NCBI GenBank assembly: GCA_028868305.1
Contig: JAGWUS010000005.1
Span: 21,098 to 85,097 of the forward strand
DNA length: 64,000 bases
Source of the DNA: Burkholderiales bacterium
GTDB lineage: Bacteria; Pseudomonadota; Gammaproteobacteria; Burkholderiales; Burkholderiaceae_C
Direction: 5' to 3'
Shown here piece by piece: positions 18,838 to 56,265 of the stretch. A program made the translations under genes and the position numbers. Positions within the stretch are counted from its first letter, which is position 1. The number at the start of each line of letters is the position of its first letter. Below the pieces are notes generated by a model that worked only from the letters and a program-made list of their open reading frames with translations, was not told the origin of the DNA and searched no databases.

Positions 18838-19643
18838 TGTTGCGTGTCAAATTATCGGTCGTTTATGCCTGCATGCTGACGGCCGTTACCCTCCTGGTGA
18901 CTGGCTGTTCAACGGCGCCCGAGGACAAGACTGCGGGCATGAGTCCAAACGCCCTTTATGCGGAGGCCAAAGAAGTTATGGGCATGGGCCAGTGGGACAA
19001 GGCTGTCACGCTACTGGACAAGCTTGAGGCGCGCGCAGCAGGAACACCTTTGGCGCAGCAGGCGCAGCTTGACAAGGCCTATGCACACTACAAGGCACAG
19101 GAGTCCGCACAGGCAATCGCTACGCTTGACCGATTCATGAAGCTGCACCCCGCCAGTCCCGCACTGGACTATGCGCTGTACCTGAAGGGGATCATCAACT
19201 TCAATGACGATTTGGGAATGTTCTCGGCAGTAACACGTCAGGATCTTAGCGAACGCGACCAGAAGGCCGCAAAAGAATCCTTTGAGTCATTCAAGGAGCT
19301 CACAACCCGATTTCCGGATTCGCGCTACACGCCCGACGCACGTCAGCGTATGAATTACATTGTCAATTCACTCGCCCAGTACGAAGTGCACGTCGCGCGT
19401 TACTACTACAAGCGCGGCGCCTACCTTGCGGCTATCAACCGGGCGCAGATTACGGTGACCGACTACCGTGACGTTCCCGCCATGGAAGAGGCACTTTTCA
19501 TTCTTTATAAATCGTATGATGCTCTGGGCATGACGCAACTGCGTGACGACACAAGACGGGTTCTTGAATCCAACTACCCCCACTCCGAGTTTCTTACCAG
19601 CGGCGCGAAATCTAGCAAGGATCCGTGGTGGAAGGTCTGGTAA
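18837..19643 (+). CDS. bamD: outer membrane protein assembly factor BamD (lipoprotein, TPR)
   Basis: Signal peptide with lipobox LVTGC and a TPR-like body. It is divergent from rluD, as in E. coli. Confidence 0.9.
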   Translation: MLRVKLSVVYACMLTAVTLLVTGCSTAPEDKTAGMSPNALYAEAKEVMGMGQWDKAVTLLDKLEARAAGTPLAQQAQLDKAYAHYKAQESAQAIATLDRFMKLHPASPALDYALYLKGIINFNDDLGMFSAVTRQDLSERDQKAAKESFESFKELTTRFPDSRYTPDARQRMNYIVNSLAQYEVHVARYYYKRGAYLAAINRAQITVTDYRDVPAMEEALFILYKSYDALGMTQLRDDTRRVLESNYPHSEFLTSGAKSSKDPWWKVW

Positions 19644-21603
19644 GCGCAGACAGCGCGTCCAGCCACTGAGCCCTGGAGTTCAGCCTCTGCATATCCGGCA
19701 GGGCGGCAATCAGCTTTTTGCCATACCCCATCTGCACCAACCGGGTATCGCAGACAACCAATACGCCACAATCGGACTCGCGACGTATCAGTCGCCCCGC
19801 TCCCTGCTTGAGCGCCACAGCAGCCTGTGGAAGATGCAATTCCTTGAAAGGGCTCTTGCCGGTTGCTTCAAGCTCGTCTGCTCTGGCCCGGTGCAGCGGG
19901 TCATCAGGCGGTGTGAATGGCAACTTGTCGATAACCAGCAACTGCAACGCCTCACCGGGGATATCGATACCTTCCCAGAACGAGGCAGACGCAACCAGTA
20001 CGCATGGCAGCCCACCATTGCCAGGAGCGCTACAGAACCGCTCCACGAGTTCGCGCTTGGAGGTTTCGCCTTGCACCAAAACCTGTAGTCTCTCGCCTGA
20101 ATCTAAAGTCTCACGCAGAATACTCCCGATGTTGCGCATGGCACGAAGAGACGTGGTGAGAACCAGCGTACGCCCCCCAAGTAGTGCAGCGCCCTGCGCT
20201 GCTAACTGCGCAACGGCCATCGAATGGTTCTCGTCGCCGGGCCACGGCAAGTCGTCCGGAACGTACAGGGCTGCCTGCGTCTTGTAATTAAACGGACTGG
20301 GAACCTGCAGGACACGTGCTCCCGAAAGCCCGCAGCTGCGCACAAACCAGGACAGCGTGGCGTCATGCCCCAAAGTTGCGGAGGTGAATATCCAGGACTT
20401 CCCTTCCTGCGCCTGCATCATGACACGCGTCTGCATGGCGTGCGCAATGTCCAGCGGAGAATAGACAAGGCGCACTTGATGTCCGGTTTCCATCCAACGC
20501 ACGTATCCAGCCTCGGGGACATCCCTGAAGAACGCAAGACAATCCTCCAGGCGCTGCGCTCTTTCTTGCATGACGCCCATGTCGGGCGACACCTCGGCCA
20601 CTATGGAGAGAGCATGCTGAATCGACGCCAGTGCACCAAACATCCCGGTCAGTGTGCTCACCCATTCGTTGGGACTAACACCTTCTGGCGCCCCCCCGCG
20701 CCAACTGCGTCGCCCGGGTTGCGGTCCTGCCAGAGCCCGCAAAGCGAGCACTGAGTGAGACAGGTCAGCGGCCAGTTGATCCCAGGGCACGAGACCCCGC
20801 GCATGCAGCCGACCGACTTTCAGCAGTTCATTCACGAATGAATCCAGTTGGCCCGTGGAAAATTGTTGCCCAAGAAACTGCACGCCCACATCACTGAGTT
20901 GATGCGCCTCGTCAAAAATGACGGACCGGACTGTTGGCAATAACTCCGCAACACCAGATTCCCGGATGTTCAAATCGGCAAAAAAAAGATGATGGTTTAC
21001 CACCACCAAATCAGCTGCTAGCGCGGCGCGGCGTGCCTGATTTACATGACAGGCCTGCGCATGAGGGCAGCGCGCGCCAAGACAGTTATCACGGGTGGAG
21101 GTCACCAGCGGTATCGACGGAGACGCTTCATCCAGGTAATCCAGCTCTGCCAGGTCTCCACAGCGTGTTGAGCGCGCCCATACCTCAATCTGGGCGAGTT
21201 GCCGCGAAATTCCAGCCGCACCACCCTCGGGACCTAGCCTGGCCTCTTCAAGGCGCTGTAGGCAAAGATAACTGCTTCGTCCCTTGAGCTGGGCGACACG
21301 GGCGCTCACGCCCAGTGCTTTCTGCAGGCGGGGAATATCCCGTTTGAACAACTGATCCTGCAATGCCTTGGTCGCAGTAGAGATGAGAACCCTCTGTCCG
21401 CTCAATAAAGCAGGAATAAGGTAAGCAAATGTTTTCCCAACACCGGTACCAGCCTCCACCACGAGCACTCCACCCGTGTCCATGGTGCGCGCAATTTCAA
21501 CAGCCATTTGGGTCTGTCCAACACGCGTTGAGAACGCATCCACCGCAATGCCAAGCGGACCGCCAGACTGAAAAGTCCTTGCTACAACGTCTGGCAAATC
21601 CAT
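19612..21603 (-). CDS. DinG/YoaA-family ATP-dependent DNA helicase (XPD-like, Fe-S)
   Basis: 663 aa with Walker A (AGTGVGKT), a DEAH box (FDEAHQL), a four-Cys cluster region (CLQ...CGD...CLGARCPHAQAC) and C-terminal helicase motifs. Confidence 0.8.
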   Translation of the reverse strand: MDLPDVVARTFQSGGPLGIAVDAFSTRVGQTQMAVEIARTMDTGGVLVVEAGTGVGKTFAYLIPALLSGQRVLISTATKALQDQLFKRDIPRLQKALGVSARVAQLKGRSSYLCLQRLEEARLGPEGGAAGISRQLAQIEVWARSTRCGDLAELDYLDEASPSIPLVTSTRDNCLGARCPHAQACHVNQARRAALAADLVVVNHHLFFADLNIRESGVAELLPTVRSVIFDEAHQLSDVGVQFLGQQFSTGQLDSFVNELLKVGRLHARGLVPWDQLAADLSHSVLALRALAGPQPGRRSWRGGAPEGVSPNEWVSTLTGMFGALASIQHALSIVAEVSPDMGVMQERAQRLEDCLAFFRDVPEAGYVRWMETGHQVRLVYSPLDIAHAMQTRVMMQAQEGKSWIFTSATLGHDATLSWFVRSCGLSGARVLQVPSPFNYKTQAALYVPDDLPWPGDENHSMAVAQLAAQGAALLGGRTLVLTTSLRAMRNIGSILRETLDSGERLQVLVQGETSKRELVERFCSAPGNGGLPCVLVASASFWEGIDIPGEALQLLVIDKLPFTPPDDPLHRARADELEATGKSPFKELHLPQAAVALKQGAGRLIRRESDCGVLVVCDTRLVQMGYGKKLIAALPDMQRLNSRAQWLDALSALTRPSTTDPC

Positions 21604-27195: not shown

Positions 27196-30087
27196 TTATT
27201 TGGTCAGGACAAAGCCTTTGAGTTTTCCGAACGCACCTTCCACCAGGGCTTTTTGCTGCTCCTGGTGCAGGTGGGAATAGCCCACTGCGGGTGACGCCGA
27301 AGCGGCGCGGCCGGAGTAACCCAGCTTCTGGCCTTCCAACATGTTCTCGTGAATGTAGTGCTGCACGAAGAACCAGGCGCCCTGGTTCTGTGGCTCGTCC
27401 TGGCACCAAACCACGTCCGTCGCGTTGGGGTACTTCTTGAGTTCGGCGGCGAAGGCCTTGTGCGGGAACGGATAAAGCTGTTCCACACGCAGAATGGCCA
27501 CGTCATCCTGACCTTTTTCATCACGCTTCTTGACCAGGTCGTAGTACACCTTGCCAGAGCAGGTGATGACGCGTTTGACCTTGTCGGCCTTGAGTTCCTT
27601 GTTCTCGGGGATAACCGTCTGAAACGCGCCCTTGGTGAACTCGGACAATGGCGATGTAGCATCCTTGTTACGCAGCAGGGACTTGGGCGTAAAGATCACC
27701 AGCGGCTTGCGCAGGTTACGCACCATCTGGCGACGCAACACATGGAAGATCTGGCTGGCCGTGGTGGGCTGCACGATCTGCATATTGGTGTCCGCTGCCA
27801 GCTGCATGAAGCGCTCCACACGGGCCGAGCTGTGCTCAGGGCCCTGGCCTTCGTAGCCATGCGGCAACATCAGGGTGATGCCGTTCACGCGGCCCCACTT
27901 CACTTCGCCTGAGGCGATGAACTGGTCGATCACCACTTGCGCGCCATTGGCAAAGTCGCCGAACTGGGCTTCCCAGATCACCAGGGTATTGGGATCGTTG
28001 GAAGCATAGCCGTATTCAAAGCCCAGCACCGCCTCTTCGGACAGGATGGAGTCGATGACCACGAACGGAGCCTGGTTCTCGGCCACGTTCTGCAATGGCA
28101 CGTAGGTACCCACGTCCCACTTTTCGCGATTCTGGTCGTGAATCACAGCGTGGCGGTGGGTGAAGGTTCCGCGTCCGCAGTCTTCGCCGGACAGGCGCAC
28201 GGGATAGCCGCTGGCCACCAAGGAGGCAAACGCCATGTGCTCGCCCATGCCCCAGTCCACATTGATCTCGCCACGGCCCATGGCTGCGCGGTCGTCATAC
28301 ACCTTTTTCACCAGTTGGTGGGGAGAAACACTGGCCGGGAGTGTAGTCAGCTTTTCCGACAGGCGCTTCCACTCCGTCAGCGGAATGGCAGTGTCACCTG
28401 CATCGGTCCACTTCTTGCCTAGGAACGGAGACCAGTCCACCGCATACTTGCTCTTGAAGTTAGTCAGCACCGGGTCAACCGTGTGCTTGCCGGCATCCAT
28501 GGCGGTGCGGTAGGCCTTGACCATGTCGTCACCCAGCGTGGCACCCAAGCCCTGGGTTGTAAGCTTGTCGGCGTACAGCCTGCGGGTACCAGGGTGGGCC
28601 GCAATTTTCTTGTACATCAGCGGCTGGGTCAGGCTGGGGGTGTCCTGCTCGTTGTGGCCCAGCTTGCGGAAGCAGGTGATGTCCACCACCACGTCCTGGC
28701 GGAATTCCATGCGGAATTCGAGGGCCAACTGGGTAGCCAGCACCACAGCTTCCGGATCATCGCCATTGACGTGCAACACAGGCGCTTCCACCATCTTGAC
28801 GATGTCGGTGCAGAACGCACTGGAGCGCATGTCGCGGGGGTCGGACGTGGTGAAACCGATCTGGTTGTTGATGATGAGGTGCACTGTGCCACCGGTGGTG
28901 TAGCCACGGGTTTGCGCCAGACACAGGGTTTCCTGGTTGACGCCCTGGCCACCGAAAGCAGCATCGCCGTGCACCAGCACAGGCAGCACCTGGCTACCCT
29001 TGGGGTCGTCACGGCGGTCCATGCGGGCACGTACCGAACCTTCCACCACCGGATTCACAATTTCCAGGTGCGAGGGGTTGAACGCCAGTGACAGGTGCAC
29101 CGGACCACCCGCGGTGGACACGTCCGAGCTGAAACCCTGGTGGTATTTCACGTCACCGGCTGGCAATTCTTCAGGGGCTGTGTGATCGAACTCGGCAAAC
29201 AGGTCGCCAGGCATCTTGCCCAGCGTGTTGACCAGCACGTTCAGGCGGCCACGGTGGGCCATACCGATAACGATTTCCTGCACACCCTTGGCTCCGGCCT
29301 GCTGGATCAGTTCATCCATTGCGGCGATAAAGCTCTCGCCACCTTCCAGCGAGAAGCGTTTCTGGCCCACATACTTGGTGTGCAGGAAACGCTCGAGACC
29401 TTCTGCTGCGGTCAGACGATCGAGAATCGCCTTTTTCTTGTCCGCGCTGAAGTTGGGCTTGCTGCGAATGGATTCGAGCTTTTGCTGCCACCAGCGCTTC
29501 TGGTTCTGGTCGGTGGTGTACATGTACTCGGCACCGATGGTGCCGCAGTAGGTTTCACGCAGCGCATTCATCAACTCACGCAGGCTCATCGACTCTTTGC
29601 CGAAGAAGGTGTTGCTGATGTTGAACACCGTTTCCTGGTCAGCATCATTGAAGCCGTAGAAGGACAGTTCCAGTTCAGGAATCTTGTCGCGCTCGGTGCG
29701 CTTGAGCGGATCGAGATCAGCCCAGCGTGCGCCCACATTGCGGTAGGCCGCAATCAACTGCTGCACGGCAGTGCGCTTGCGGCCCATTTCGGAGTCGGCC
29801 CCGGTGGCCATCACCACGCGGCTGACACCCTGCTTGGCACGCTCGGCAAATGCATTGATAACCGGGAGATGGGCTACGTCCTTGGCGCTGCTGCCGTCCA
29901 CTGCGGGAACGTGCTGCAAGGCGTCAAAGTAATCGCGCCAGGAATCTGGAACACTGCCCGGGTTATTCAGGTAGTTTTCGTACATCTCTTCGACGTACGG
30001 GGCATTGCCCCCAAAAAGATAGGTATTGCTCTGGTACGTTTCGTACACAGACGAAGGGTTCGCCCCTGGGGACGTTGTCTCACTCAT
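27196..30087 (-). CDS. sucA: 2-oxoglutarate dehydrogenase E1 component
   Basis: 963 aa with N-terminus [18 protein letters not shown] and a ThDP-binding region. It sits in the sucA-sucB-lpd order. Confidence 0.95.
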
Positions 30088-30279
30088 ATTCCGCTGACCT
30101 CCGTTCCCCTTGAGGGAACATAAGCTGGTTAAAGCTGTTGATTAACCTTCCGCGACACGGCTGAACCGTTTGGCGGATGCGACTGTGGCATGGGAAGGGC
30201 CTAAATTGCAATGCGAATTGTGCCACCGAATCATGCAAAGCCAAAGACTCAACACAACCCGGTGTACCAAAACCACACG

Positions 30280-48544: not shown

Positions 48545-48763
48545 TCACTCGTCGCCCGAGGGTCCGGGTTCGCGCACCTGAAGCAGCAGATCTTCGGCCC
48601 GCAATTCGGTATCGGCAAAGATGACCTTGATCTTGCCTACGGTGCCGGTCTGCTGGGCGAGGCGCAAGAATTTGGCCTGCGCCGAGGCCTGTGCAAAGGC
48701 ACCGTGCTCGGCCAGCTTTTCCAGTTGCGCAAAAGGTTTGACCCGGAAAATGTAGTACGGCAC
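48545..48763 (-). CDS. small hypothetical protein (72 aa from the GTG)
   Basis: The ORF reads VPYYIFRVKPFAQLEKLAEHGAFAQASAQAKFLRLAQ... The GTG at 48761-48763 follows GAGGA with a 5-nt spacer, 8 nt after the S24 gene stop. I recognise no family. Confidence 0.35.
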   Translation of the reverse strand: MPYYIFRVKPFAQLEKLAEHGAFAQASAQAKFLRLAQQTGTVGKIKVIFADTELRAEDLLLQVREPGPSGDE

Positions 48764-48771
48764 GTTATTCC

Positions 48772-49089
48772 TCAAAGGTAGCTTTTACTGGCGCGGCGGC
48801 GCCCGGGCAAGGATTTCTGGATGATGACGCCGCGCACGGCCGAGAGATCGGCCAGCGGGATGTCGGAAAAGGCTGGGTTGAGGGCGTGCAGTCGCCAGCC
48901 CGATGCGTTGCGACAGAGCTGGCGAAAGATCCATTCGCCCCGGTGTTGGGCCAGTACATAGGCGCCATCGCGCAGCAGGCCATCGGGCTCGATAACGATG
49001 ATTTCACCTTCGTTGAATTCGGGCTCCATGCTGGTGCCGAGCACCCGCAGCACAAAGGATTCGCTGCCACTGCAGGCGCTCTCTTGCAT
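48772..49089 (-). CDS. stand-alone S24 (LexA/UmuD-type) peptidase domain, no HTH
   Basis: Contains VLGTSMEPEF (the Ser nucleophile motif G-x-S-M) and then GAYVLAQHRGEWIFRQL. The start is the ATG at 49087-49089, 11 nt after the upstream stop. Confidence 0.55.
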   Translation of the reverse strand: MQESACSGSESFVLRVLGTSMEPEFNEGEIIVIEPDGLLRDGAYVLAQHRGEWIFRQLCRNASGWRLHALNPAFSDIPLADLSAVRGVIIQKSLPGRRRASKSYL

Positions 49090-49100
49090 ATCCACCGTGC

Positions 49101-50600
49101 TCACACCAGCACTCCCACCGGCCGCGCCAGCACATTCGTGAAAATCTGAGCGGCGGGGATGCCGACCGCACGCAGCTCGGCATCCAGAGTGCAGACGAAT
49201 TGCTCGGGGCCGGCCAGGTAAAAATCGCACTCAATGTCGAACAGGTCGGTCCGCATGGCGCGCGCCATTTGCAGGGTGCCGAAGGTGATGTCGGTCTCAC
49301 TCAGCAACTCGTACTCGAACGGGTCCAGGGCTTCAGACCAGGCGCGGCACTGGTTGGCCAGGAAGTGGCCGTCGGGCTGGGTCGACAACCAGAACAGCGA
49401 CAGGGAGGGAGCTGACTCCAGCGCCAGGGCGTGTTCGATCAGGCTCTTGATGGGAGCGAAGCCCGCATCGCAGGCGGCAAACACCAGTGGCCGGTGGCCT
49501 TCGGCCAGCACGAACTCACCACAGGGCCCCCACACCGTGACCGCATCGCCGGCCTTGATGTTGCCGGAAAAAAGTTGCTGGGCGAACGGATCCTGTGCGT
49601 TGCGCGGGATGAAGAAGTGCAGGTTGCGGTCGTCGCAGGGGCAACTGGCCACCGGGTAGAGGGCGTGCAGATCGCTGCCGCCGGGCCCGGTCAGGCCCAG
49701 CGTGACGGACTGCCCGGCGAGAAAGCGCAAACGGTGGCTCCGTGGTGTCTGCAGGTGCAGCAATCGCGTGTCGGGTGCCAGGCTGCTTACGCCGCGCACC
49801 TGGGTCACTATCTGCTGCTGCGGGATGTCCTGCGGTCCGCTGGCTTCGAGCAATTCCAGGGTGAGTTCGCTACTGGCCGCCGTATGGGCGCACATGAGGG
49901 TGTAGCCCTGGCTTTTTTCGGCCTCGGACAGGGGGTAGTCGAAGGTCTGGGTCCTGGCGACCTGCCCCGAGATCACGCGCACCTTGCACATGCCACAGGT
50001 GCCGTTGCCGCAACCGTAGTTGAGCTTGAGGCCTGCCCGCAAGCCGGCCTGCAACAAGGTGTCGTGCCCCTCCACCGAGAACTCGTGTCCGCTGGGGCGA
50101 ACCATGACCTGTGCCGTCATGACTTTGAGCATATCGTCCATCACCGTGAGCAAATCGGCCTGTTCGGTGGCCAGCGCCTGGGCCAGCCCCTGATCGACAA
50201 AATCCTGCAACCCAGACAGCACCAGCGGGGTGGCTCCCTGGGCCTGCAGGGCATAGATGCGCTCCTGCAGGGCCACCACCAGGGCGTGGTAGCGCTGCAG
50301 GCAGCGCCGCACATCGGCCAGTTCCTGGGTCTGGTTAAACAGACGCTGCGCCAGCACTTCCTGGCTGGGCAGCAGGCGCTCACGGACGCGCTTGCCAAAG
50401 GCTTCGTCCTTGATACTGGCCACCCGCTCCAGCAGGCCGGATTCCTCGAGCTGGGTCGCCGGGTACAGGCGCAGTAACTCGTCGGTGGAGAGCAGCCCTT
50501 CGGTCAGCACCAGCGCGCCGTCACGCACCTGCTGCTGCAACGCACCGCGAGACACCCCCACCAACTGGGCGGCGCGCCAGACGGTCAGCCAATGCGTCAT
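49101..50600 (-). CDS. HTH (excisionase/MerR-like) + coiled-coil + plant-type [2Fe-2S] ferredoxin + FNR-like oxidoreductase fusion
   Basis: N-terminus WLTVWRAAQLVGVSRGALQQQVRDGAL. The [2Fe-2S] motif is CGNGTCGMCKV...C, and an FNR-like FAD/NAD module follows. The ATG at 50598-50600 overlaps the upstream TGA (ATGA). Confidence 0.7.
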   Translation of the reverse strand: MTHWLTVWRAAQLVGVSRGALQQQVRDGALVLTEGLLSTDELLRLYPATQLEESGLLERVASIKDEAFGKRVRERLLPSQEVLAQRLFNQTQELADVRRCLQRYHALVVALQERIYALQAQGATPLVLSGLQDFVDQGLAQALATEQADLLTVMDDMLKVMTAQVMVRPSGHEFSVEGHDTLLQAGLRAGLKLNYGCGNGTCGMCKVRVISGQVARTQTFDYPLSEAEKSQGYTLMCAHTAASSELTLELLEASGPQDIPQQQIVTQVRGVSSLAPDTRLLHLQTPRSHRLRFLAGQSVTLGLTGPGGSDLHALYPVASCPCDDRNLHFFIPRNAQDPFAQQLFSGNIKAGDAVTVWGPCGEFVLAEGHRPLVFAACDAGFAPIKSLIEHALALESAPSLSLFWLSTQPDGHFLANQCRAWSEALDPFEYELLSETDITFGTLQMARAMRTDLFDIECDFYLAGPEQFVCTLDAELRAVGIPAAQIFTNVLARPVGVLV

Positions 50601-51541
50601 AGCGAATCCTCCGCGCAATGCACTTCGACTTTGGGTGGCGTCACGCGCTCGTCGTGCACGTGGTCGAGATAGCGCGCCCGGTAGAGCAGGCGCGGGCACA
50701 CTGGGTCGTCAGTGAAACCGGTGCGGTCGTGCGGCACATTGTTGGCCACGATGCCCATGCCGGGCTGCATGAGCAGGCGGAACACCCAGGGCGGGTTGGA
50801 GGCCAGCAATTGCTCGATGAAAGCCACCGCCGCACGCGTGGGCGTGTCGTTCCTCCACTCAATGCTGCGGATGCGCGCGGTGTAGCGCATCTGCAGCCCG
50901 CCGTCAGCGCGCAGGTAGAACACCGGACCACTTTGCGCGGGGCGCGCCACGCCACATTCATCGGTGCGCTCGGGGATGGTCATGGCATCAGGCGCCATAA
51001 GTGCGCGCACCCAATCGGGGTTGGCGTCGCGCAAGGCCATGTAGATCATCTCGTGGTCGGCCAGGCCACTCACGCCGCCCTCGCCCGCGCTGCGCACGCA
51101 GTGCAGGATCATGCCCTCGATGCGCCGCGCCTGCGGGTGGTAGTAGCCATCGGTGTGCCATTTGATGGGTTTGTTGGTGTAGGGGATGAAGTCGGCGCGT
51201 GGTCCGCCCTCATCATCCCCGGAAACAGCAATGGACGAAACACCGTCCTCGTCGGCCAGCCAGTTGGTGTCGAGTCGGCGCAGGCCGAGTTGGGCACCAA
51301 GGAGGCGCGGCAGTTCCTTGTCTTCAGCCGTCACCGGGCTGCGATAAAGCGACATGTTGGTTCGCGCGCACATCGCAAGGATGGCCGCTCGCTCTGTCGC
51401 GGTGAGCGCGCGCGGATCGGCAACATCCACGATCAGTTCCTCCACCCGCGCCGGATGCGCAGCCCGCTTGGCGACGCGCCAAGCGGCGTAGAGATCAGGC
51501 CGATTGAGGTCAAAGGAACTGTCACTGGCACGCATATTCAT
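50597..51541 (-). CDS. TauD/TfdA-fold (Fe(II)/2-oxoglutarate dioxygenase-like) protein
   Basis: An HxD motif in KWHTDGYYH, GEGGVSGLADHEMIY, and a distal His in VANNVPHDRTGF. The start is the ATG at 51539-51541, after GGAGG with a 7-nt spacer. Confidence 0.65.
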   Translation of the reverse strand: MNMRASDSSFDLNRPDLYAAWRVAKRAAHPARVEELIVDVADPRALTATERAAILAMCARTNMSLYRSPVTAEDKELPRLLGAQLGLRRLDTNWLADEDGVSSIAVSGDDEGGPRADFIPYTNKPIKWHTDGYYHPQARRIEGMILHCVRSAGEGGVSGLADHEMIYMALRDANPDWVRALMAPDAMTIPERTDECGVARPAQSGPVFYLRADGGLQMRYTARIRSIEWRNDTPTRAAVAFIEQLLASNPPWVFRLLMQPGMGIVANNVPHDRTGFTDDPVCPRLLYRARYLDHVHDERVTPPKVEVHCAEDSL

Positions 51542-51594
51542 TTCGTCGCCTCCAAACACATTGGCGCTGCGAAGCCGACACAGGAGGGGCATCT

Positions 51595-52203
51595 CTACTC
51601 TCCACTCATGCTGCTGCGTCGGACCGGGCGTGGCTCAATGGAAAACACCCCCTCCATGCCGCGCTGCACCATCTGCAGCGCCTCGGGCGCCTCGATCGCC
51701 ATGATCTGGTCGATCACCCAACGCTGGTCCTTGGCCGGCATCAGGGTCTCGATGCGGTGCCCCAAGTAGCGCACGAAGCCAAAGTCCGGACCTTCCGGGC
51801 CATGGGAAAAATCAGCGTAGGCATCGGCCTGCTCGTTGCACAGGTCGATGAACTGGTCACGCCGGCTTTCCTCGCCCGGCGCTGGTGGAGGCAACCATTC
51901 GACTTCGCTTTCCTCCAGGATTTCGGCGACGCGCCGCACCAGAGCAGTGGTGAACTCAATCCGCAGTTCGGAGGACATGCGTTCGTAGGCCATGCGGTCC
52001 TCCACCTGAACCAGGAACACAAGCACCTCGCGCATGAAGGCGAAGTACTGCGGCCCGACATCGATGTCGAACTTGGCCTCGCGCATCTGCTTGAGCATGT
52101 TCTGCGTCACGCGCCAGGTGATGAAGGCCATGGCGCTGGCGGTTTGCTGCGCGGTCTTGGGCGCCTCGGTCTGGAACCACTGGCTCTTGATGCGTATGGC
52201 CAT
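51595..52203 (-). CDS. hypothetical protein, predicted helical, no family recognised
   Basis: 202-aa ORF with normal-looking composition, co-oriented with and 53 nt upstream of the TauD-like gene. Confidence 0.5.
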   Translation of the reverse strand: MAIRIKSQWFQTEAPKTAQQTASAMAFITWRVTQNMLKQMREAKFDIDVGPQYFAFMREVLVFLVQVEDRMAYERMSSELRIEFTTALVRRVAEILEESEVEWLPPPAPGEESRRDQFIDLCNEQADAYADFSHGPEGPDFGFVRYLGHRIETLMPAKDQRWVIDQIMAIEAPEALQMVQRGMEGVFSIEPRPVRRSSMSGE

Positions 52204-52281
52204 GGCAGTTTCTCAGTTCTCTTGCGTCAGGCTACCGCAGGCTACAGAGCCGCAGATGATGCGGTCCAAGCCAGGAACGCC

Positions 52282-52305
52282 GTGGAACCGGCTTCGCCGG
52301 GCCAC
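52282..52305 (-). other. GC-rich bipartite hairpin in the 155-nt spacer between the DsrC paralogue and the 202-aa gene
   Basis: In GTGGAACCGGCTTCGCCGGGCCAC, CCGGC pairs with GCCGG (loop TTC) and GTGG pairs with CCAC. There is no U-tract. Confidence 0.3.
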
Positions 52306-52358
52306 TGGCGTTGCCTCCTTGAGGGGGAGACGGCGACAGCCGGCACAGGGGTGCTTCA

Positions 52359-52688
52359 TCAATACCCGCCTTTGCCCAGCGGCTGCGGTAGCCCTGCCAC
52401 CTTGGCCGCCTGCTTGGCCGGCCCCAGCGGGAACAGGTCGTACAGGTACTTGCTTTCCACGTCAGGTCTTATTTCCGCGAAACCCTTGAGCATGTTGCGA
52501 AAGTTGGGGGTATGGCCGTGCTCGCGGTACTGATCGCGCATGTAGTTGATGACTTCCCAGTGTGCATCCGTCAGCGTGATGCCTTCGGCTTCGGCAATCA
52601 CTTGCACAGCCTCTTCGCTCAGCTCGGGTTCCAGTAAATAGCCCTCGGCATCGGTGTGTAGTTCAACGCCATTGATGTTGTAGCCCAT
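52359..52688 (-). CDS. DsrC/TusE-family protein lacking both conserved C-terminal cysteines (regulatory-type paralogue)
   Basis: 109 aa, alignable over its whole length with the true DsrC at 57394 (TDAEGYL, LTDAHWEVINYMR, SKYLYDLFP.GPAKQA). It ends ...AAKVAGLPQPLGKGGY, where DsrC ends ...ACKIAGLPKPTGCV. The start is the ATG at 52686-52688, after GGAGA. Confidence 0.8.
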   Translation of the reverse strand: MGYNINGVELHTDAEGYLLEPELSEEAVQVIAEAEGITLTDAHWEVINYMRDQYREHGHTPNFRNMLKGFAEIRPDVESKYLYDLFPLGPAKQAAKVAGLPQPLGKGGY

Positions 52689-52722: not shown

Positions 52723-53313
52723 TCAGCTGCCCACGGCAGCGGCCGATTTGTGCGGCACAAAGATGCCGCAGCCCAGCAGCCGGTGGGGCCCCAGCCCTTG
52801 CTCCTGCAGGCGCCGCGAATCCGCCAGGGACAGTGCATGCAGCATCAGGCTGAAGGTGGTCAGCACCTGCCCTGGTAGCTTTTGGCTGCCGCGCTTGCCG
52901 CACACCGTCTGCGCACGCACCGCCAGAGCCTGCAACTCGCCGGCCACGGCCTCCATGAATATCCCTTCGTCGACACCGGCCGCGGCCACGCCTGGGGCAT
53001 ACAGTGTGGTGTGCGGCAGCAGTTCGCGCAGATGGGGAGCTCCCAGTTGCAGGGTACTGCCGTCCACTTCGATCGTCCGCCCGGCCAGGGTCTGCGCCAG
53101 GGCCACCCGCGCGCGCGGCAGGCGCAGCAGCAAGCGGGTGCGCTGCGACAGCAGTGCCTGACTTTCGCCGCCGGACACCAGCTTCAACGGATGTATACCG
53201 GCTAGTGGCTCCTCCGGCAGCCAGGGCAGGGCCTGCTGCAAGGCCTGTTGCAGGGCCTGGGCATGGTCACGCGGCAGGCTGTGCCCGGCCAGTGGAAAGA
53301 CCATATCAACCAT
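52723..53313 (-). CDS. orphan Cas6-like (RAMP) protein, possibly Cas6/Cmx6 family
   Basis: The C-terminal GLGPHRLLGCG fits the Cas6 glycine-rich loop G-h-G-x5-G-h-G exactly. The N-terminus (VDMVFPLAGHSLPRDHAQAL...LPWL...GIHPL) matches my recollection of Cmx6-type proteins. No CRISPR array or other cas gene is in the window. The start is taken at the ATG at 53313. Confidence 0.45.
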   Translation of the reverse strand: MVDMVFPLAGHSLPRDHAQALQQALQQALPWLPEEPLAGIHPLKLVSGGESQALLSQRTRLLLRLPRARVALAQTLAGRTIEVDGSTLQLGAPHLRELLPHTTLYAPGVAAAGVDEGIFMEAVAGELQALAVRAQTVCGKRGSQKLPGQVLTTFSLMLHALSLADSRRLQEQGLGPHRLLGCGIFVPHKSAAAVGS

Positions 53314-53339
53314 GGTGGCTTCATCCGGATCATCCTGGC

Positions 53340-53564
53340 TCACGGGCGCTCCTGATCCTGTTGCGATTGGGCCCAGCGCAGTAGCGCCTGTCCCCACAGT
53401 TCTGCCGTCTGGGGATCGATATCGAAAATGGTGAAACGGCTCTTTTCGCGGATACGGGTGCGCAGGAAACTCATCCCGCCGGTGTCGAAATCGACCTGCT
53501 GCAATTCGATCTCTTGCCCGCCAAGCGGCACCCTGAAGTTGTCGAGCGAGGTGATCTGGGTCAT
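53340..53564 (-). CDS. small hypothetical protein (74 aa), first gene of the block divergent from dsrA
   Basis: The ORF reads MTQITSLDNFRVPLGGQEIELQQVDFDTGGMSFLRTRIREKSRFTIFDIDPQTAELWGQALL... I preferred the ATG at 53564 over the track's TTG at 53594. Confidence 0.4.
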   Translation of the reverse strand: MTQITSLDNFRVPLGGQEIELQQVDFDTGGMSFLRTRIREKSRFTIFDIDPQTAELWGQALLRWAQSQQDQERP

Positions 53565-53826
53565 GTCTGGGCCTGCTTTTGTTCGGTCCGGCAATGCAAA
53601 GGAATGCTATTGACGCAATTCCGCGCTGGCCCGTCTATAACCGGGACGGGTGGTGACACATAACCCTTTTGGGTAGCTTCACATACTCAACGAGGGGGAT
53701 AGCGAATCAAAGGCAACGCCGCCTACGATGCTCTTCATAGATAAAAAAAGAGCCGCATAAGCGCTCGAGACCCGTCAGTACAGCATTCCCGCCGTCTCAA
53801 AAACGGCATTCCGACAGGAGACAAAA

Positions 53827-55131
53827 ATGGCCAAAAAAATGCATGACACCCCCATGCTCGACCAGCTCGAGAGTGGGCCATGGCCGAGCTTCGTGACCGG
53901 TCTGAAGCGACTGGCCAAGGACAAGGACTACATGGTTGACCTCATGGGTCAGCTCGAAACCTCGTACAAAACCCGCAAGGGCTATTGGAAAGGCGGCACG
54001 GTCGGCGTGTTCGGTTACGGTGGCGGCGTGATTCCGCGCTTCACTGAACTCAAGGATGCCGACGGCAAACCCCAGTTTCCGGATGCCGCTGAATTTCACA
54101 CCCTGCGCGTGCAGCCACCGGCTGGCATGCACTACAACACGGACATACTTCGCAAGTTCTGCGACATCTGGGAAAGGCATGGCTCGGGCCTGATCGCCTT
54201 CCACGGCCAGTCGGGTGACATCATGTTCCAGGGCGCGAAGACCGACAAGGTGCAGGATGCCTTCGATGAGCTCAACGAATTGGGGTTCGATCTCGGCGGA
54301 GCCGGCCCGGCGGTCCGTACCTCCATGTCCTGCGTCGGCGCTGCGCGCTGCGAGCAGTCCTGCTACGACGAAGCCCGGGCCCATCGCCAGGTACTCAACA
54401 CATTCCTGGACGACATCCACCGCCCAGCCCTGCCCTACAAATTCAAGTTCAAATTTTCTGGCTGCCCGAACGACTGCATGAACTCGATCCAGCGCTCGGA
54501 CATGGCCGTGATCGGCACCTGGCGCGACAACATTCGTACCGACGAAACGCTGGCGCGCAAATGGTTTGCCAAGCACGGTATGAACGAACTGGTCAACGAC
54601 GTGGTCAGCCGCTGCCCGACCAAGACCATCATGTTGAAGGAAATCAAGGACGTCGCCAAAGGTCCGAAGATTTCCAGCGTCAAGATAAACGACACGCAGT
54701 GCCTGGAGATCGACAACAGCAACTGCGTGCGCTGCATGCACTGCATCAATGTGATGACGGGCGCCCTAGCCCACGGCACCGACACCGGAGCCACTGTCCT
54801 GGTGGGTGGCAAGCGCACGCTCAAGATCGGCGATCTGATGGGCACCGTAGTGGTGCCCTTTATGCCCCTGAAGACCGAAGAGGACTACAAAGCCCTGGTC
54901 GAGCTGGGCCAGAAAACCATCGACTTCTTCGCCGAAAACGCGTTGGAGCACGAGCGTACCGGCGAGATGATCGAGCGTATCGGCCTGGTCAACTTCCTCG
55001 AAGGCATCGGCCTCGAAATCGACCCGAACATGGTCTCCACACCGCGCACCAATCCCTATGTGCGCGCCGATGGCTGGGACGATGAAGTGGCCAAGATCAA
55101 TGCCCGCAAGCAAGCCGCTGCTGGCGGCTGA
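53827..55131 (+). CDS. dsrA: dissimilatory sulfite reductase alpha subunit
   Basis: 434 aa with siroheme/Fe-S motifs SMSCVGAARCEQSC and KFKFSGCPNDC plus a ferredoxin insert (CPTK...CVRCMHC). An SD (AGGAGA) precedes the ATG. Confidence 0.95.
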   Translation: MAKKMHDTPMLDQLESGPWPSFVTGLKRLAKDKDYMVDLMGQLETSYKTRKGYWKGGTVGVFGYGGGVIPRFTELKDADGKPQFPDAAEFHTLRVQPPAGMHYNTDILRKFCDIWERHGSGLIAFHGQSGDIMFQGAKTDKVQDAFDELNELGFDLGGAGPAVRTSMSCVGAARCEQSCYDEARAHRQVLNTFLDDIHRPALPYKFKFKFSGCPNDCMNSIQRSDMAVIGTWRDNIRTDETLARKWFAKHGMNELVNDVVSRCPTKTIMLKEIKDVAKGPKISSVKINDTQCLEIDNSNCVRCMHCINVMTGALAHGTDTGATVLVGGKRTLKIGDLMGTVVVPFMPLKTEEDYKALVELGQKTIDFFAENALEHERTGEMIERIGLVNFLEGIGLEIDPNMVSTPRTNPYVRADGWDDEVAKINARKQAAAGG

Positions 55132-55194: not shown

Positions 55195-56265
55195 ATGGCC
55201 CAAATGCGCACCCCCATCGAGAGCGGCGTACCGGACAACAAACAGTACCTGCACCCCACGCTGCTGAAAAACTACGGCAACTGGAAATACCACGACCGGC
55301 CCCGCCCCGGCGTGCTGCACCACGTTGCACACAATGGCGACGAGGTCTGGTCGGTGCGTGCCGGCACGCAGCGCCAAATGGACGTCTACACCATTCGCAA
55401 GCTGTGCGACATCGCCGACACCTATGCCGAAGGGCATGTGCGGTTCACGATCCGCTCCAACATCGAGTTCATGGTGTCGGACCCGAACAAGGTGGCACCG
55501 TTAATCGAGTCGCTCACCAGTAACGGATTCCCGGTCGGCGGTACCGGCAATTCGGTATCGATGATTGCCCACACCCAGGGCTGGCTGCACTGCGATATTC
55601 CCGGCACCGATGCCTCGGGCGCGGTGAAGGCGCTGATGGACGACCTGCATGCGGAATTCATCAAGGAAGAAATGCCCAACCGGGTGCACCTGTCCACCTC
55701 CTGCTGCGAAATCAATTGCGGCGGCCAGGCGGATATCGCCATCATCGTGCAGCACACCAAGCCGCCCAAGATCAACCACGACCTGGTGGCCAATGCCTGT
55801 GAGCGTCCGGCGGTGGTGGCGCGCTGCCCGGTGGCGGCCATTCGCCCCGCATTGGTCAATGGCAAGCCCTCGCTTGAAGTAGACGAGAAAAAGTGCATTT
55901 GCTGCGGCGCCTGCTACCCACCCTGCCCGCCCATGCAGATCAACGATCCCGAGCACTCCAAGCTGGCCATCTGGGTAGGCGGGAAGAACTCGAACGCACG
56001 CGGCAAGCCCACGTTCATGAAGATGGTGGCTTCCGGTCTGCCCAACAACCCGCCGCGGTGGCCCGAAGTCTCCGCCATGGTGAAGAAAATTCTCTACACC
56101 TACAAGGAAGACGCCCGCCCGTGGGAGCGTTTGTCCGACTGGATCGAACGCATCGGCTGGCCGCAGTTTTTCGAGAAGTGCGACCTGCCCTTCACCAAGT
56201 ACCTGATCGACGACTGGCGCGGTTCCCGTGCCAGCCTGAACGCCTCGACCCATATCCGCTTCTGA
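55195..56265 (+). CDS. dsrB: dissimilatory sulfite reductase beta subunit
   Basis: 356 aa with GWLHCDIPG, STSCCEINCGG and a ferredoxin domain (CPVAAIRP...CICCGACYPPCP). Confidence 0.95.
   Translation: MAQMRTPIESGVPDNKQYLHPTLLKNYGNWKYHDRPRPGVLHHVAHNGDEVWSVRAGTQRQMDVYTIRKLCDIADTYAEGHVRFTIRSNIEFMVSDPNKVAPLIESLTSNGFPVGGTGNSVSMIAHTQGWLHCDIPGTDASGAVKALMDDLHAEFIKEEMPNRVHLSTSCCEINCGGQADIAIIVQHTKPPKINHDLVANACERPAVVARCPVAAIRPALVNGKPSLEVDEKKCICCGACYPPCPPMQINDPEHSKLAIWVGGKNSNARGKPTFMKMVASGLPNNPPRWPEVSAMVKKILYTYKEDARPWERLSDWIERIGWPQFFEKCDLPFTKYLIDDWRGSRASLNASTHIRF

Follow-up and report, generated by a model that had tools for sequence, protein, structure and literature searches.

The locus described here raises the question of what a Cas6-like protein is doing next to the genes of the oxidative dsr cluster, with no CRISPR array around it. 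The DNA analysed, called the window throughout, is a stretch of 64,000 nt from a Burkholderiales bacterium (GCA_028868305.1, contig JAGWUS010000005.1, positions 21,098-85,097, forward strand). The gene in question occupies 52723..53343 on the minus strand and belongs to a dsr-linked, beta-type clade of the PF09559/Cmx6 family, as judged from Pfam, NCBIfam, an AlphaFold2 model compared using Foldseek, and public gene calls. It is firmly established that this Cas6-like protein is not part of a CRISPR-Cas locus, and as firmly that its clade, large and distinct, accompanies a gene module linked to dsr almost constantly, as one of its members, in two classes of Proteobacteria. With moderate confidence, we read the protein as a CRISPR-independent member of the Cas6/Cmx6 family and a fixed subunit of a module beside the oxidative dsr cluster, with a putative role in RNA binding or processing.

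The identity of the protein was assessed from both sequence and predicted structure. It matches PF09559 over the full length of the profile (positions 1-191 of 191, E 3.9e-56, 190.5 bits against a cutoff of 26.7), scores 140.6 bits against a curated cutoff of 98.85 with the NCBIfam model TIGR02807 (cas6_cmx6, type I-MYXAN Cas6/Cmx6), and is matched by six PADLOC Cas6 models (best E 3.1e-55). The sole meaningful match in a sequence search of the PDB was 8fcj_B, the Cas6 subunit of a type I-B CRISPR-associated transposon (CAST) Cascade, with an E-value of 1.4e-14. An AlphaFold2 model based on 65 homologues gave a predicted local distance difference test (pLDDT) value of 95.2 and a predicted TM-score of 0.90, and the best Foldseek matches for this model were 8fcu_B and 8fcj_B (TM 0.86, root-mean-square deviation (rmsd) 1.8-1.9 Å), with further matches to Pyrococcus furiosus Cas6 (TM 0.6-0.69), Cas6e/Cse3 and other Cas6 structures. 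Model and matches agree on two tandem ferredoxin-like/RRM domains. The glycine-rich loop (G-h-G-x5-G-h-G) reads GLGPHRLLGCG at residues 183-193, near the C-terminus QEQGLGPHRLLGCGIFVPHK, and G183, G191 and G193 are invariant among 65 aligned sequences. Because the full-length profile matches, the PDB match and a confident model with Cas6 structural matches all agree, we conclude that the gene encodes a genuine protein of the Cas6 fold and family.

An earlier reading of this DNA, the original prediction, had called a Cas6/Cmx6 protein from its glycine-rich loop and had proposed a search with profile hidden Markov models and for a dual-RRM fold; PF09559, TIGR02807 and the structure model bear out the identity, and both the profile match and the fold were found. 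The C-terminal and N-terminal strings that it quoted are present in the translated open reading frame (ORF) as written, and the 34-nt gap that it gave between the Cas6-like gene and a DsrC-like gene (52688..52359) is correct. Its extent for the gene, 52723-53313, stood only in part. The ORF is real, and open over 52723..53397 on the minus strand, but the ATG at 53313 is an alternative start that yields 196 aa, whereas a GTG at 53343, giving 206 aa, is the start chosen in public calls for this identical protein, as in almost every homologue.

We then considered whether any CRISPR component accompanies the gene. Over the 64-kb window, Tandem Repeats Finder detected neither a CRISPR array nor a CRISPR-like tandem repeat, a direct-repeat search yielded one two-copy pair only, and a k-mer array detector returned nothing, yet recovered arrays in cyanobacterial control loci, four Cmx6 loci having been run as positive controls. 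With the same detector no array was found in approximately 170 related loci (1.95 Mb in total, controls included). PADLOC, applied to the 101 window ORFs of at least 170 aa, identified no cas family besides Cas6, shorter genes such as cas2 being outside that scan, and no cas family appeared in the Pfam-annotated neighbourhoods of relatives. Thus, in the window and in the annotated relatives, none of cas3, cmx8/cas8, cas7, cas5, cas1 and cas2 adjoins the Cas6-like gene. The array and cas evidence covers the window plus 8-10 kb flanks of each related locus, and within the 64 kb it upholds the original prediction, which had noted no array and no other cas gene. An Rfam scan of the window returned a sucA motif only, with no tRNA or other RNA at the locus.

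The neighbours that the gene does have are conserved to a degree that a single locus could not show. A scan of GTDB, with one genome per species, found a relative in 204 genomes, and 80 loci were kept. All of these carry betaproteobacterial or unclassified Proteobacteria labels with the exception of L054, which lies on a contig binned as Streptomycetaceae. The carriers include Hydrogenophaga, Rhodoferax, Rubrivivax, Sulfurisoma, Sulfuritalea, Sulfuricella, Hydrogenophilus, Rhodocyclaceae and Hydrogenophilales, together with many metagenome-assembled genomes (MAGs). Using tblastn with the window proteins, we found the cassette kept down to 41% Cas6 identity, and at 35% identity (L090-L092) the beta-type cassette is still there. 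Neighbours were counted only at loci long enough to judge. Among beta-type loci, 78 of 79 have a gene for a DUF6967 protein immediately upstream of Cas6, and dsrA is divergent in 64 of 64, with dsrB present in 59 of 59. A cysteine-less DsrC/TusE-family protein, RspA, is encoded downstream of Cas6 in 63 of 71 loci, a conserved 202-aa protein (p202) in 64 of 64, a TauD-like dioxygenase in 57 of 61 and a ferredoxin-reductase in 33 of 54. At the inspected loci, the order is DUF6967, Cas6, RspA, p202, TauD-like and often the reductase, followed by an S24 peptidase.

A second form of the cassette emerged from an exhaustive HMMER search of 1.8 billion cluster representatives, in which 1156 clusters passed E<=1e-3 and 107 of them passed E<=1e-30. 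Of the 150 best representatives (50%-identity clusters), 103 are beta-type proteins of ~200-210 aa and 47 are gamma-type proteins of ~220-233 aa, and every context sampled among these 150 is dsr- or TauD-linked. A metagenome scan with a gamma-type profile then gave more than 554 relatives, from which 80 loci were kept. In gamma-type loci, dsrBA runs one way and TauD, a 62-aa protein, Cas6 and RspA run the other (as in L087). The 62-aa gene is present in 50 of 51 loci, TauD upstream of Cas6 in 33 of 36, the divergent dsrA in 22 of 26 and RspA downstream of Cas6 in 31 of 33. Three gamma-type loci (L137, L141 and L153) have no divergent dsrAB and instead carry a DsrR-like gene directly upstream of TauD; in L153, the genes dsrO-dsrP-dsrN-dsrR, with an IscA-like dsrR, precede the module on the same strand. 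We take this slot after dsrR to be the position of dsrS in Allochromatium vinosum.

The linkage of the Cas6-like clade to dsrAB and to its partners, namely DUF6967 or the 62-aa protein, the cysteine-less RspA and the TauD-like protein, is near-obligate. The tie to dsr drawn by the original prediction from one locus accordingly reappears, in stronger form, as membership of a conserved dsr-flanking cassette at more than 150 loci.

Variants of the cassette were also seen. In a Rhodocyclaceae locus (L055, 10614-11096), a tandem TusA gene is inserted between Cas6 and RspA. A gamma-type locus (L126, 7153-7881 and 9201-10049) carries two insertions: a 242-aa protein of no assigned family, which separates Cas6 from the 62-aa gene, and a rhodanese that follows RspA. 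A third locus (L089, 5081-10690) contains TauD, a 64-aa protein and Cas6 only, with no dsr genes and no RspA, and adjoins transposase genes of the IS21 and Mutator types, a sign that this core of three genes may be mobile by itself.

To place the clade within its family, we compared it with Cmx6 proteins of CRISPR systems. The sole plasmid-borne relatives were cyanobacterial proteins annotated as Cas6/Cmx6, which are 27-31% identical over full-length matches. All four of the true Cmx6 genes that were inspected head cas6-cas3-cmx8(cas8)-cas7-cas5-cas1-cas2 operons, and arrays were detected beside three of the four; the array repeat of Synechocystis 6714 is GTGTCCAAACCATTGATGCCGTAAGGCGTTGAGCAC. 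Residues common to the dsr clade and the CRISPR-type Cmx6 proteins are D13, F16, G20, D26, the invariant R74, L86, G88, F129, S176 and Q180, and in the loop region G183, G185, R188, G191, C192, G193 and F195. Further basic positions conserved in the Cas6-like clade are R68, R70, R79 and R106. A joint alignment also revealed residues specific to the dsr clade, i.e., W41, E126, G149, H198-K199 and a C-terminal tail KSxAAVG, which is conserved and yet modelled with low confidence by AlphaFold2 and predicted to be disordered.

Cas6 enzymes bind a short RNA element in a sequence- and structure-specific manner and cleave it without metal by means of a His near helix 1. In the window protein, Asp26 and then His27 stand at the N-terminal end of helix 1, where, by analogy with the general base of Cas6e, the catalytic His would be expected. 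His27 is also present in four of five CRISPR-type proteins, in 93% of gamma-type and in 51% of beta-type proteins, with Tyr in the others. The dsr-linked proteins are a distinct subfamily which keeps the parts expected to hold RNA and has gained features of its own.

In the window, the Cas6-like gene is the second in a co-directional and tightly packed set on the minus strand. The first gene (53340..53564, minus strand) encodes the 74-aa DUF6967 protein (PF22295, E 1.2e-30), and its stop codon overlaps the GTG of Cas6 by 4 nt, so that the two genes are probably translationally coupled. A consensus scan placed a terminator-like GC hairpin, followed by a T-run, over the Cas6 stop codon (52726..52740, minus strand). 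The T-run 3' of the stop is present in several Comamonadaceae loci and is not universal, and the element looks like a lineage-restricted terminator; it may uncouple expression of DUF6967 and Cas6 from that of the genes downstream.

Next in the set comes the DsrC/TusE-family gene (52359..52688, minus strand; PF04358, E 2.2e-33, and TIGR03342), whose product lacks the C-terminal cysteines and ends in ...AGLPQPLGKGGY (GKGGY). Cysteine-less DsrC-like proteins of this type are known as the RspA family (PMC8477390). Both cysteines are absent from the RspA of the module, which has a conserved end ...AGLP-x3-4-(K/R)KGGY / GKGGY (window 52359-52688; L087 10780-11118). The p202 gene (51595..52203, minus strand) has no Pfam, NCBIfam or PDB match. 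It is followed by the gene for a TauD/TfdA-family Fe(II)/2-oxoglutarate dioxygenase-like protein (50597..51592, minus strand; PF02668, E 5.5e-16), for which the nearest NCBIfam models are trimethyllysine and gamma-butyrobetaine dioxygenases. These nearest models, taken together with the conserved RspA tail, led us to the idea that the TauD-like enzyme might hydroxylate that tail.

The distal part of the set begins with a 2Fe-2S ferredoxin and FNR-type reductase (49101..50699, minus strand, with a likely start near 50600; Fer2, FAD_binding_6 and NAD_binding_1 domains, BenC-like in NCBIfam). Its N-terminal region of ~190 aa has no Pfam match and, by eye, resembles a helix-turn-helix and then a coiled coil. 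A stand-alone S24 (LexA/UmuD-type) peptidase-like gene (48772..49104, minus strand; PF00717, E 2.1e-17) starts with a 4-nt overlap on the reductase stop, and its order in the window recurs in L004, L090 and L091. The unusual reductase/S24 pairing suggests a putative redox-sensing regulatory device. A 72-aa ORF read from the sequence (48545..48763, minus strand), with no family assigned, closes the operon; a 72-aa gene stands at the equivalent position in L004. On the other side, divergent from the Cas6 set, are dsrA (53827-55131, plus strand) and dsrB (55195-56265, plus strand), the first genes of an rDsr cluster that runs on to the window end and has the order dsrABEFHCMKL... in relatives. 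The picture of this locus in the original prediction was right about the DsrC-like neighbour and overlooked the DUF6967, TauD-like, reductase and S24 genes as well as the dsrA-proximal palindromes described below.

Elsewhere in the window, a PADLOC match to the type IV DinG/Csf4 model (19612-21603, minus strand, E 2e-123) was considered as a hidden CRISPR component and rejected. In NCBIfam, this ORF scores 729.9 bits with YoaA against a cutoff of 680, compared with 93.5 against 400 for Csf4, and it sits among the housekeeping genes RluD, BamD, PP2C phosphatase and ZapE. It is the DNA-repair helicase YoaA, a false alarm for defence-system scans. The remaining PADLOC helicase matches in the window correspond to the RNA helicase RhlE, and the LeoA and LeoBC (dynamin-like GTPase) models match two window ORFs each, with best E-values of 9e-20 and 7e-16. 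The sucA RNA motif (RF01070, 80.8 bits) is at 30092-30182 on the minus strand, directly upstream of a 963-aa ORF (27196-30087) that, judged by its position, is probably the 2-oxoglutarate dehydrogenase E1 gene.

The upstream partner of the Cas6-like protein, DUF6967, has 1413 database homologues, and the single homologue whose context was looked up adjoins dsrA. Its AlphaFold2 model (pLDDT 91) consists of four beta strands followed by a long helix. The protein is Arg-rich, with four invariant arginines in strands 3-4. Sequence searches of the PDB with DUF6967 and p202 gave no match, and the best Foldseek matches of the DUF6967 model were PUR-alpha repeats (TM 0.59-0.65, rmsd ~3 Å), and the list further included Whirly, SAS-6 and WGR domains. 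Repeats of the PUR and Whirly kinds bind single-stranded nucleic acid, and PUR-like proteins bind single-stranded DNA as well as RNA. The predicted fold is a hint that the coupled Cas6/DUF6967 pair may handle nucleic acid.

Most likely, as judged from its sequence and context, the Cas6-like protein would bind or process RNA as one subunit of a regulatory or accessory module linked to dsr. We propose that it would bind a short stem-loop RNA through its glycine-rich loop and conserved arginines, that the conserved His27, where helix 1 begins, might cut the bound RNA, and that the protein probably acts jointly with the coupled, Arg-rich DUF6967. The target would be a dsr-related transcript, the original prediction having suggested dsr mRNA, and the best candidate is a palindrome pair 125-250 nt upstream of dsrA, and the module would set dsr expression post-transcriptionally. 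RspA, together with the reductase and S24 proteins in beta-type loci, could supply the sensing or DNA-binding side.

The palindrome pair is itself conserved. In the window, the first copy (53661..53677) reads CTACCC-AAAA-GGGTTAT in the operon sense (CTACCCAAAAGGGTTAT) and is conserved in ~79 distinct beta-type intergenic regions. The second, palindrome-like copy (53682..53703; GCTATCCCCCTCGTTGAGTATG in the operon sense) is likewise conserved in beta-type loci. Gamma-type loci have CTACCC and then, 31 nt away, TATCCC-N4-GGGATA, located 125-250 nt upstream of the dsrA start (L087, 8497-8545). A pair of TACCC-N4-GGGTA-type palindromes upstream of dsrA is common to beta- and gamma-type loci alike. 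In the dsrA sense, the fold of the window leader is better than that of shuffled sequence (z -2.73), and in it the two palindrome copies pair together; some lineages extend the stem with differing sequence, e.g., to a 13-bp perfect stem in L048. A short GC stem with a tetraloop is also present in the cognate repeat of a true Cmx6.

Two other candidate elements were discarded. The spacer RNA at 52204-52358, which the original prediction had put forward as a test RNA, proved to be nothing special: its fold has a z of -1.64, and the spacing varies from 3 to ~900 nt in relatives. A hairpin in the codons of the conserved C-terminal AAVG was considered as a Cas6 target and rejected as a general element as well: the codons vary, the predicted structures do not stay in register, and what is conserved is the protein. 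In the window, this hairpin resembles a terminator.

Several observations weigh against RNA as the ligand of the Cas6-like protein, or against cleavage of it. The RNA target that we infer is a candidate only. The palindrome hairpins show no clear strand asymmetry that would separate RNA from DNA, the palindromes are conserved in sequence with no clear covariation, and the hairpins are weak (4 bp) in many lineages. Cross-locus chimera controls were null or marginal (p 0.24 for duplex energies, 0.57 for pair counts in hairpin context and 0.047 for energy). Upstream of TauD in the three loci with the module after dsrR, the palindrome was not found with the narrow pattern searched, which indicates that it goes with dsrA. 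The palindromes are explained at least as well by a DNA operator, for RspA or for the N-terminal part of the reductase, as by an RNA that Cas6 would target. A helix-turn-helix is part of the DsrC fold, and the DsrC of Allochromatium reportedly binds dsr promoter DNA. The similarity of DUF6967 to PUR repeats comes without a significant Foldseek E-value (0.3-1). Position 27 is Tyr in about half of the beta-type representatives, so that cleavage may not be general, and the glycine-rich loop is also structural, so that its conservation is no proof of RNA binding.

The main rival explanation is an RNA-independent scaffold, which we regard as a real but lesser possibility. With its double ferredoxin-like fold retained solely as a scaffold, the Cas6-like protein could act as an adaptor or chaperone, presenting to the TauD-like enzyme either the RspA tail or some other protein of the sulfur relay, or it could form a structural part of a complex that senses sulfur, oxygen or redox state. 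The constant partners are all of the sulfur-relay or redox type (RspA, the TauD-like protein and, in some lineages, TusA-TusA, rhodanese and ferredoxin-reductase), and the features gained by the clade are absent from CRISPR-type Cmx6, including a tail, HKSxAAVG, that is conserved, predicted to be disordered and similar in look to a docking peptide. That His27 is not universal, and that strand asymmetry, the spacer fold and the chimera controls produced no convincing RNA element, would also fit such a role. However, the residues common to the clade and CRISPR-type Cmx6 cluster in the glycine-rich loop together with R74 and R188, and R68, R70, R79 and R106 are conserved as well. Such conservation is difficult to account for unless the ligand is a nucleic acid. 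A pure scaffold also sits less easily with a coupled DUF6967 that is Arg-rich and has a topology like that of nucleic-acid-binding proteins.

If the ligand is a nucleic acid, it might be DNA, with the Cas6-like protein acting as a sequence-specific transcriptional regulator on the dsrA-promoter palindromes in double- or single-stranded form; we judge this improbable. The palindromes do look operator-like, as two sequence-conserved copies that in gamma-type loci lie ~31 nt, or three helical turns, apart and overlap a probable divergent promoter, and the PUR-like fold hint for DUF6967 would suit a binder of single-stranded DNA. However, we know of no Cas6 that serves as a regulator binding double-stranded DNA, and the module contains better DNA-binding candidates in RspA, with its DsrC helix-turn-helix, and in the N-terminal region of the reductase. 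In addition, by the narrow pattern searched, the module occurs without the palindromes when it follows dsrR.

It is quite improbable, in our estimation, that the module is an RNA-modification machine for thiolation or hydroxylation of tRNA or rRNA, built like the TusA-TusBCD-TusE-MnmA relay, with Cas6 for RNA recognition and the TauD-like protein as the modifier. TusE functions in tRNA 2-thiolation, where a DsrC-family protein delivers sulfur to an RNA-modifying enzyme, and the module does bring a TusE/DsrC-family protein, with TusA in some cases, together with a 2-oxoglutarate dioxygenase and a fold of the RNA-binding type. However, RspA lacks both cysteines, as its sequence and the description of the family (PMC8477390) agree, and therefore cannot carry a persulfide; moreover, the strict linkage is to dsrAB and not to translation genes, and no tRNA or other Rfam RNA lies at the locus.

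That the gene is merely a displaced, ordinary cas6 maturing CRISPR RNA for a type I-MYXAN/I-B system elsewhere in the genome is hardly credible and, given the synteny seen across the window and the 8-10 kb flanks, essentially excluded: the NCBI equivalog model does name the protein Cas6/Cmx6, and some type III systems use a Cas6 supplied in trans (PMC12669027), but the non-CRISPR neighbourhood is kept down to 35-41% identity at more than 150 loci in two proteobacterial classes, no array or cas gene occurs within 8-10 kb at any locus, true Cmx6 proteins form a separate and far more distant group that is always in cas operons, and the clade carries its own residue signature. The original prediction had allowed that a cognate CRISPR-Cas locus elsewhere would reduce the gene to this ordinary status; the conserved non-CRISPR synteny and the subfamily residues argue against it, within a survey of the window and those flanks.

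Having weighed these alternatives, we return to the reading of the Cas6-like protein as an RNA-binding or RNA-processing subunit of the dsr-linked module. In its most specific form, a domesticated Cas6 endoribonuclease and a PUR-like DUF6967 would recognise the two conserved stem-loops of the dsrA leader so as to process dsr mRNA or stabilise it, a version that we put forward tentatively and consider rather unlikely. If it were true, the expression of dissimilatory sulfur oxidation would be tied to signals that RspA, the TauD-like dioxygenase and the reductase perceive. It would also be the first case in which a single Cas6 protein, free of CRISPR, had been exapted for core energy metabolism, and one that is widespread among sulfur oxidisers in the environment.

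Neither full-text literature searches nor targeted reading, which took in the Cas unification paper of 2011, the exaptation review of 2022, the CRISPR classification of 2025 and a dsr-evolution study of 2024, turned up any account of DUF6967 or of a Cas6 clade that is solitary or linked to dsr. Databases label the clade proteins as 'type I-MYXAN CRISPR-associated Cas6/Cmx6'. As this TIGR02807 label is misleading for the clade, CRISPR-Cas counts are inflated in sulfur-oxidiser genomes and MAGs. For CRISPR evolution, the clade, to which the 150 best 50%-identity clusters and the 204 species-level genomes belong, would be a large branch of a core Cas RNA-processing enzyme that lies wholly outside CRISPR and defence, every sampled context being non-CRISPR. 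For sulfur microbiology, it defines a module that had not been described before and that accompanies the oxidative dsr cluster near-universally in Burkholderiales, Rhodocyclales, Hydrogenophilales and marine-sediment Gammaproteobacteria. For the control of rDsr expression outside Allochromatium, the module offers candidate proteins and a conserved cis-element.

Non-catalytic accessory genes attached to an oxidative dsr cluster have a precedent in dsrR and dsrS of Allochromatium vinosum, whose small products are implicated in controlling dsr expression and are said, in papers by Grimm and Dahl, to act post-transcriptionally. In their attachment to the dsr cluster they resemble the Cas6 module, whereas the IscA-like DsrR is unrelated to the Cas6-like protein in fold and sequence. 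According to the citation of Grimm et al. 2010 in PMC11406059, DsrR takes part in regulating sulfur oxidation.

Among Cas6 proteins, the nearest known counterpart is the Cmx6 of type I-MYXAN (I-B) systems (solved example: the Cas6 of the type I-B CAST Cascade, 8FCJ/8FCU chain B), which shares with the window protein the Pfam/NCBIfam family, the dual-RRM fold (TM 0.86), a similar length, the loop GxGxxRxxGCG, Arg74 and the D-H motif at the start of helix 1. In contrast, Cmx6 heads a cas operon with an array and is only 27-31% identical, while the window protein has other constant neighbours, the residues W41/E126/G149/H198-K199 and a conserved tail. The stand-alone P. furiosus Cas6, Cas6e/Cse3 and Cas6f resemble it in general fold, as detected by Foldseek, and by analogy in the expected mode of action. 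These enzymes, however, act on CRISPR repeats, whereas the locus of the window protein has no repeat, and many members of its clade have Tyr in place of His27. Cas components kept outside canonical adaptive immunity are known from the Streptomyces cas5-6-7-8 plus STAND module, type IV-B and CAST systems (PMC8730458, PMC3150331). Those exapted, arrayless modules retain a multi-subunit, Cascade-like effector in defence or mobile-element contexts; unlike them, the window locus holds a single Cas6 inside an energy-metabolism gene cluster, and thereby shows a fold and family that are already known in a metabolic setting that is new and lies outside defence.

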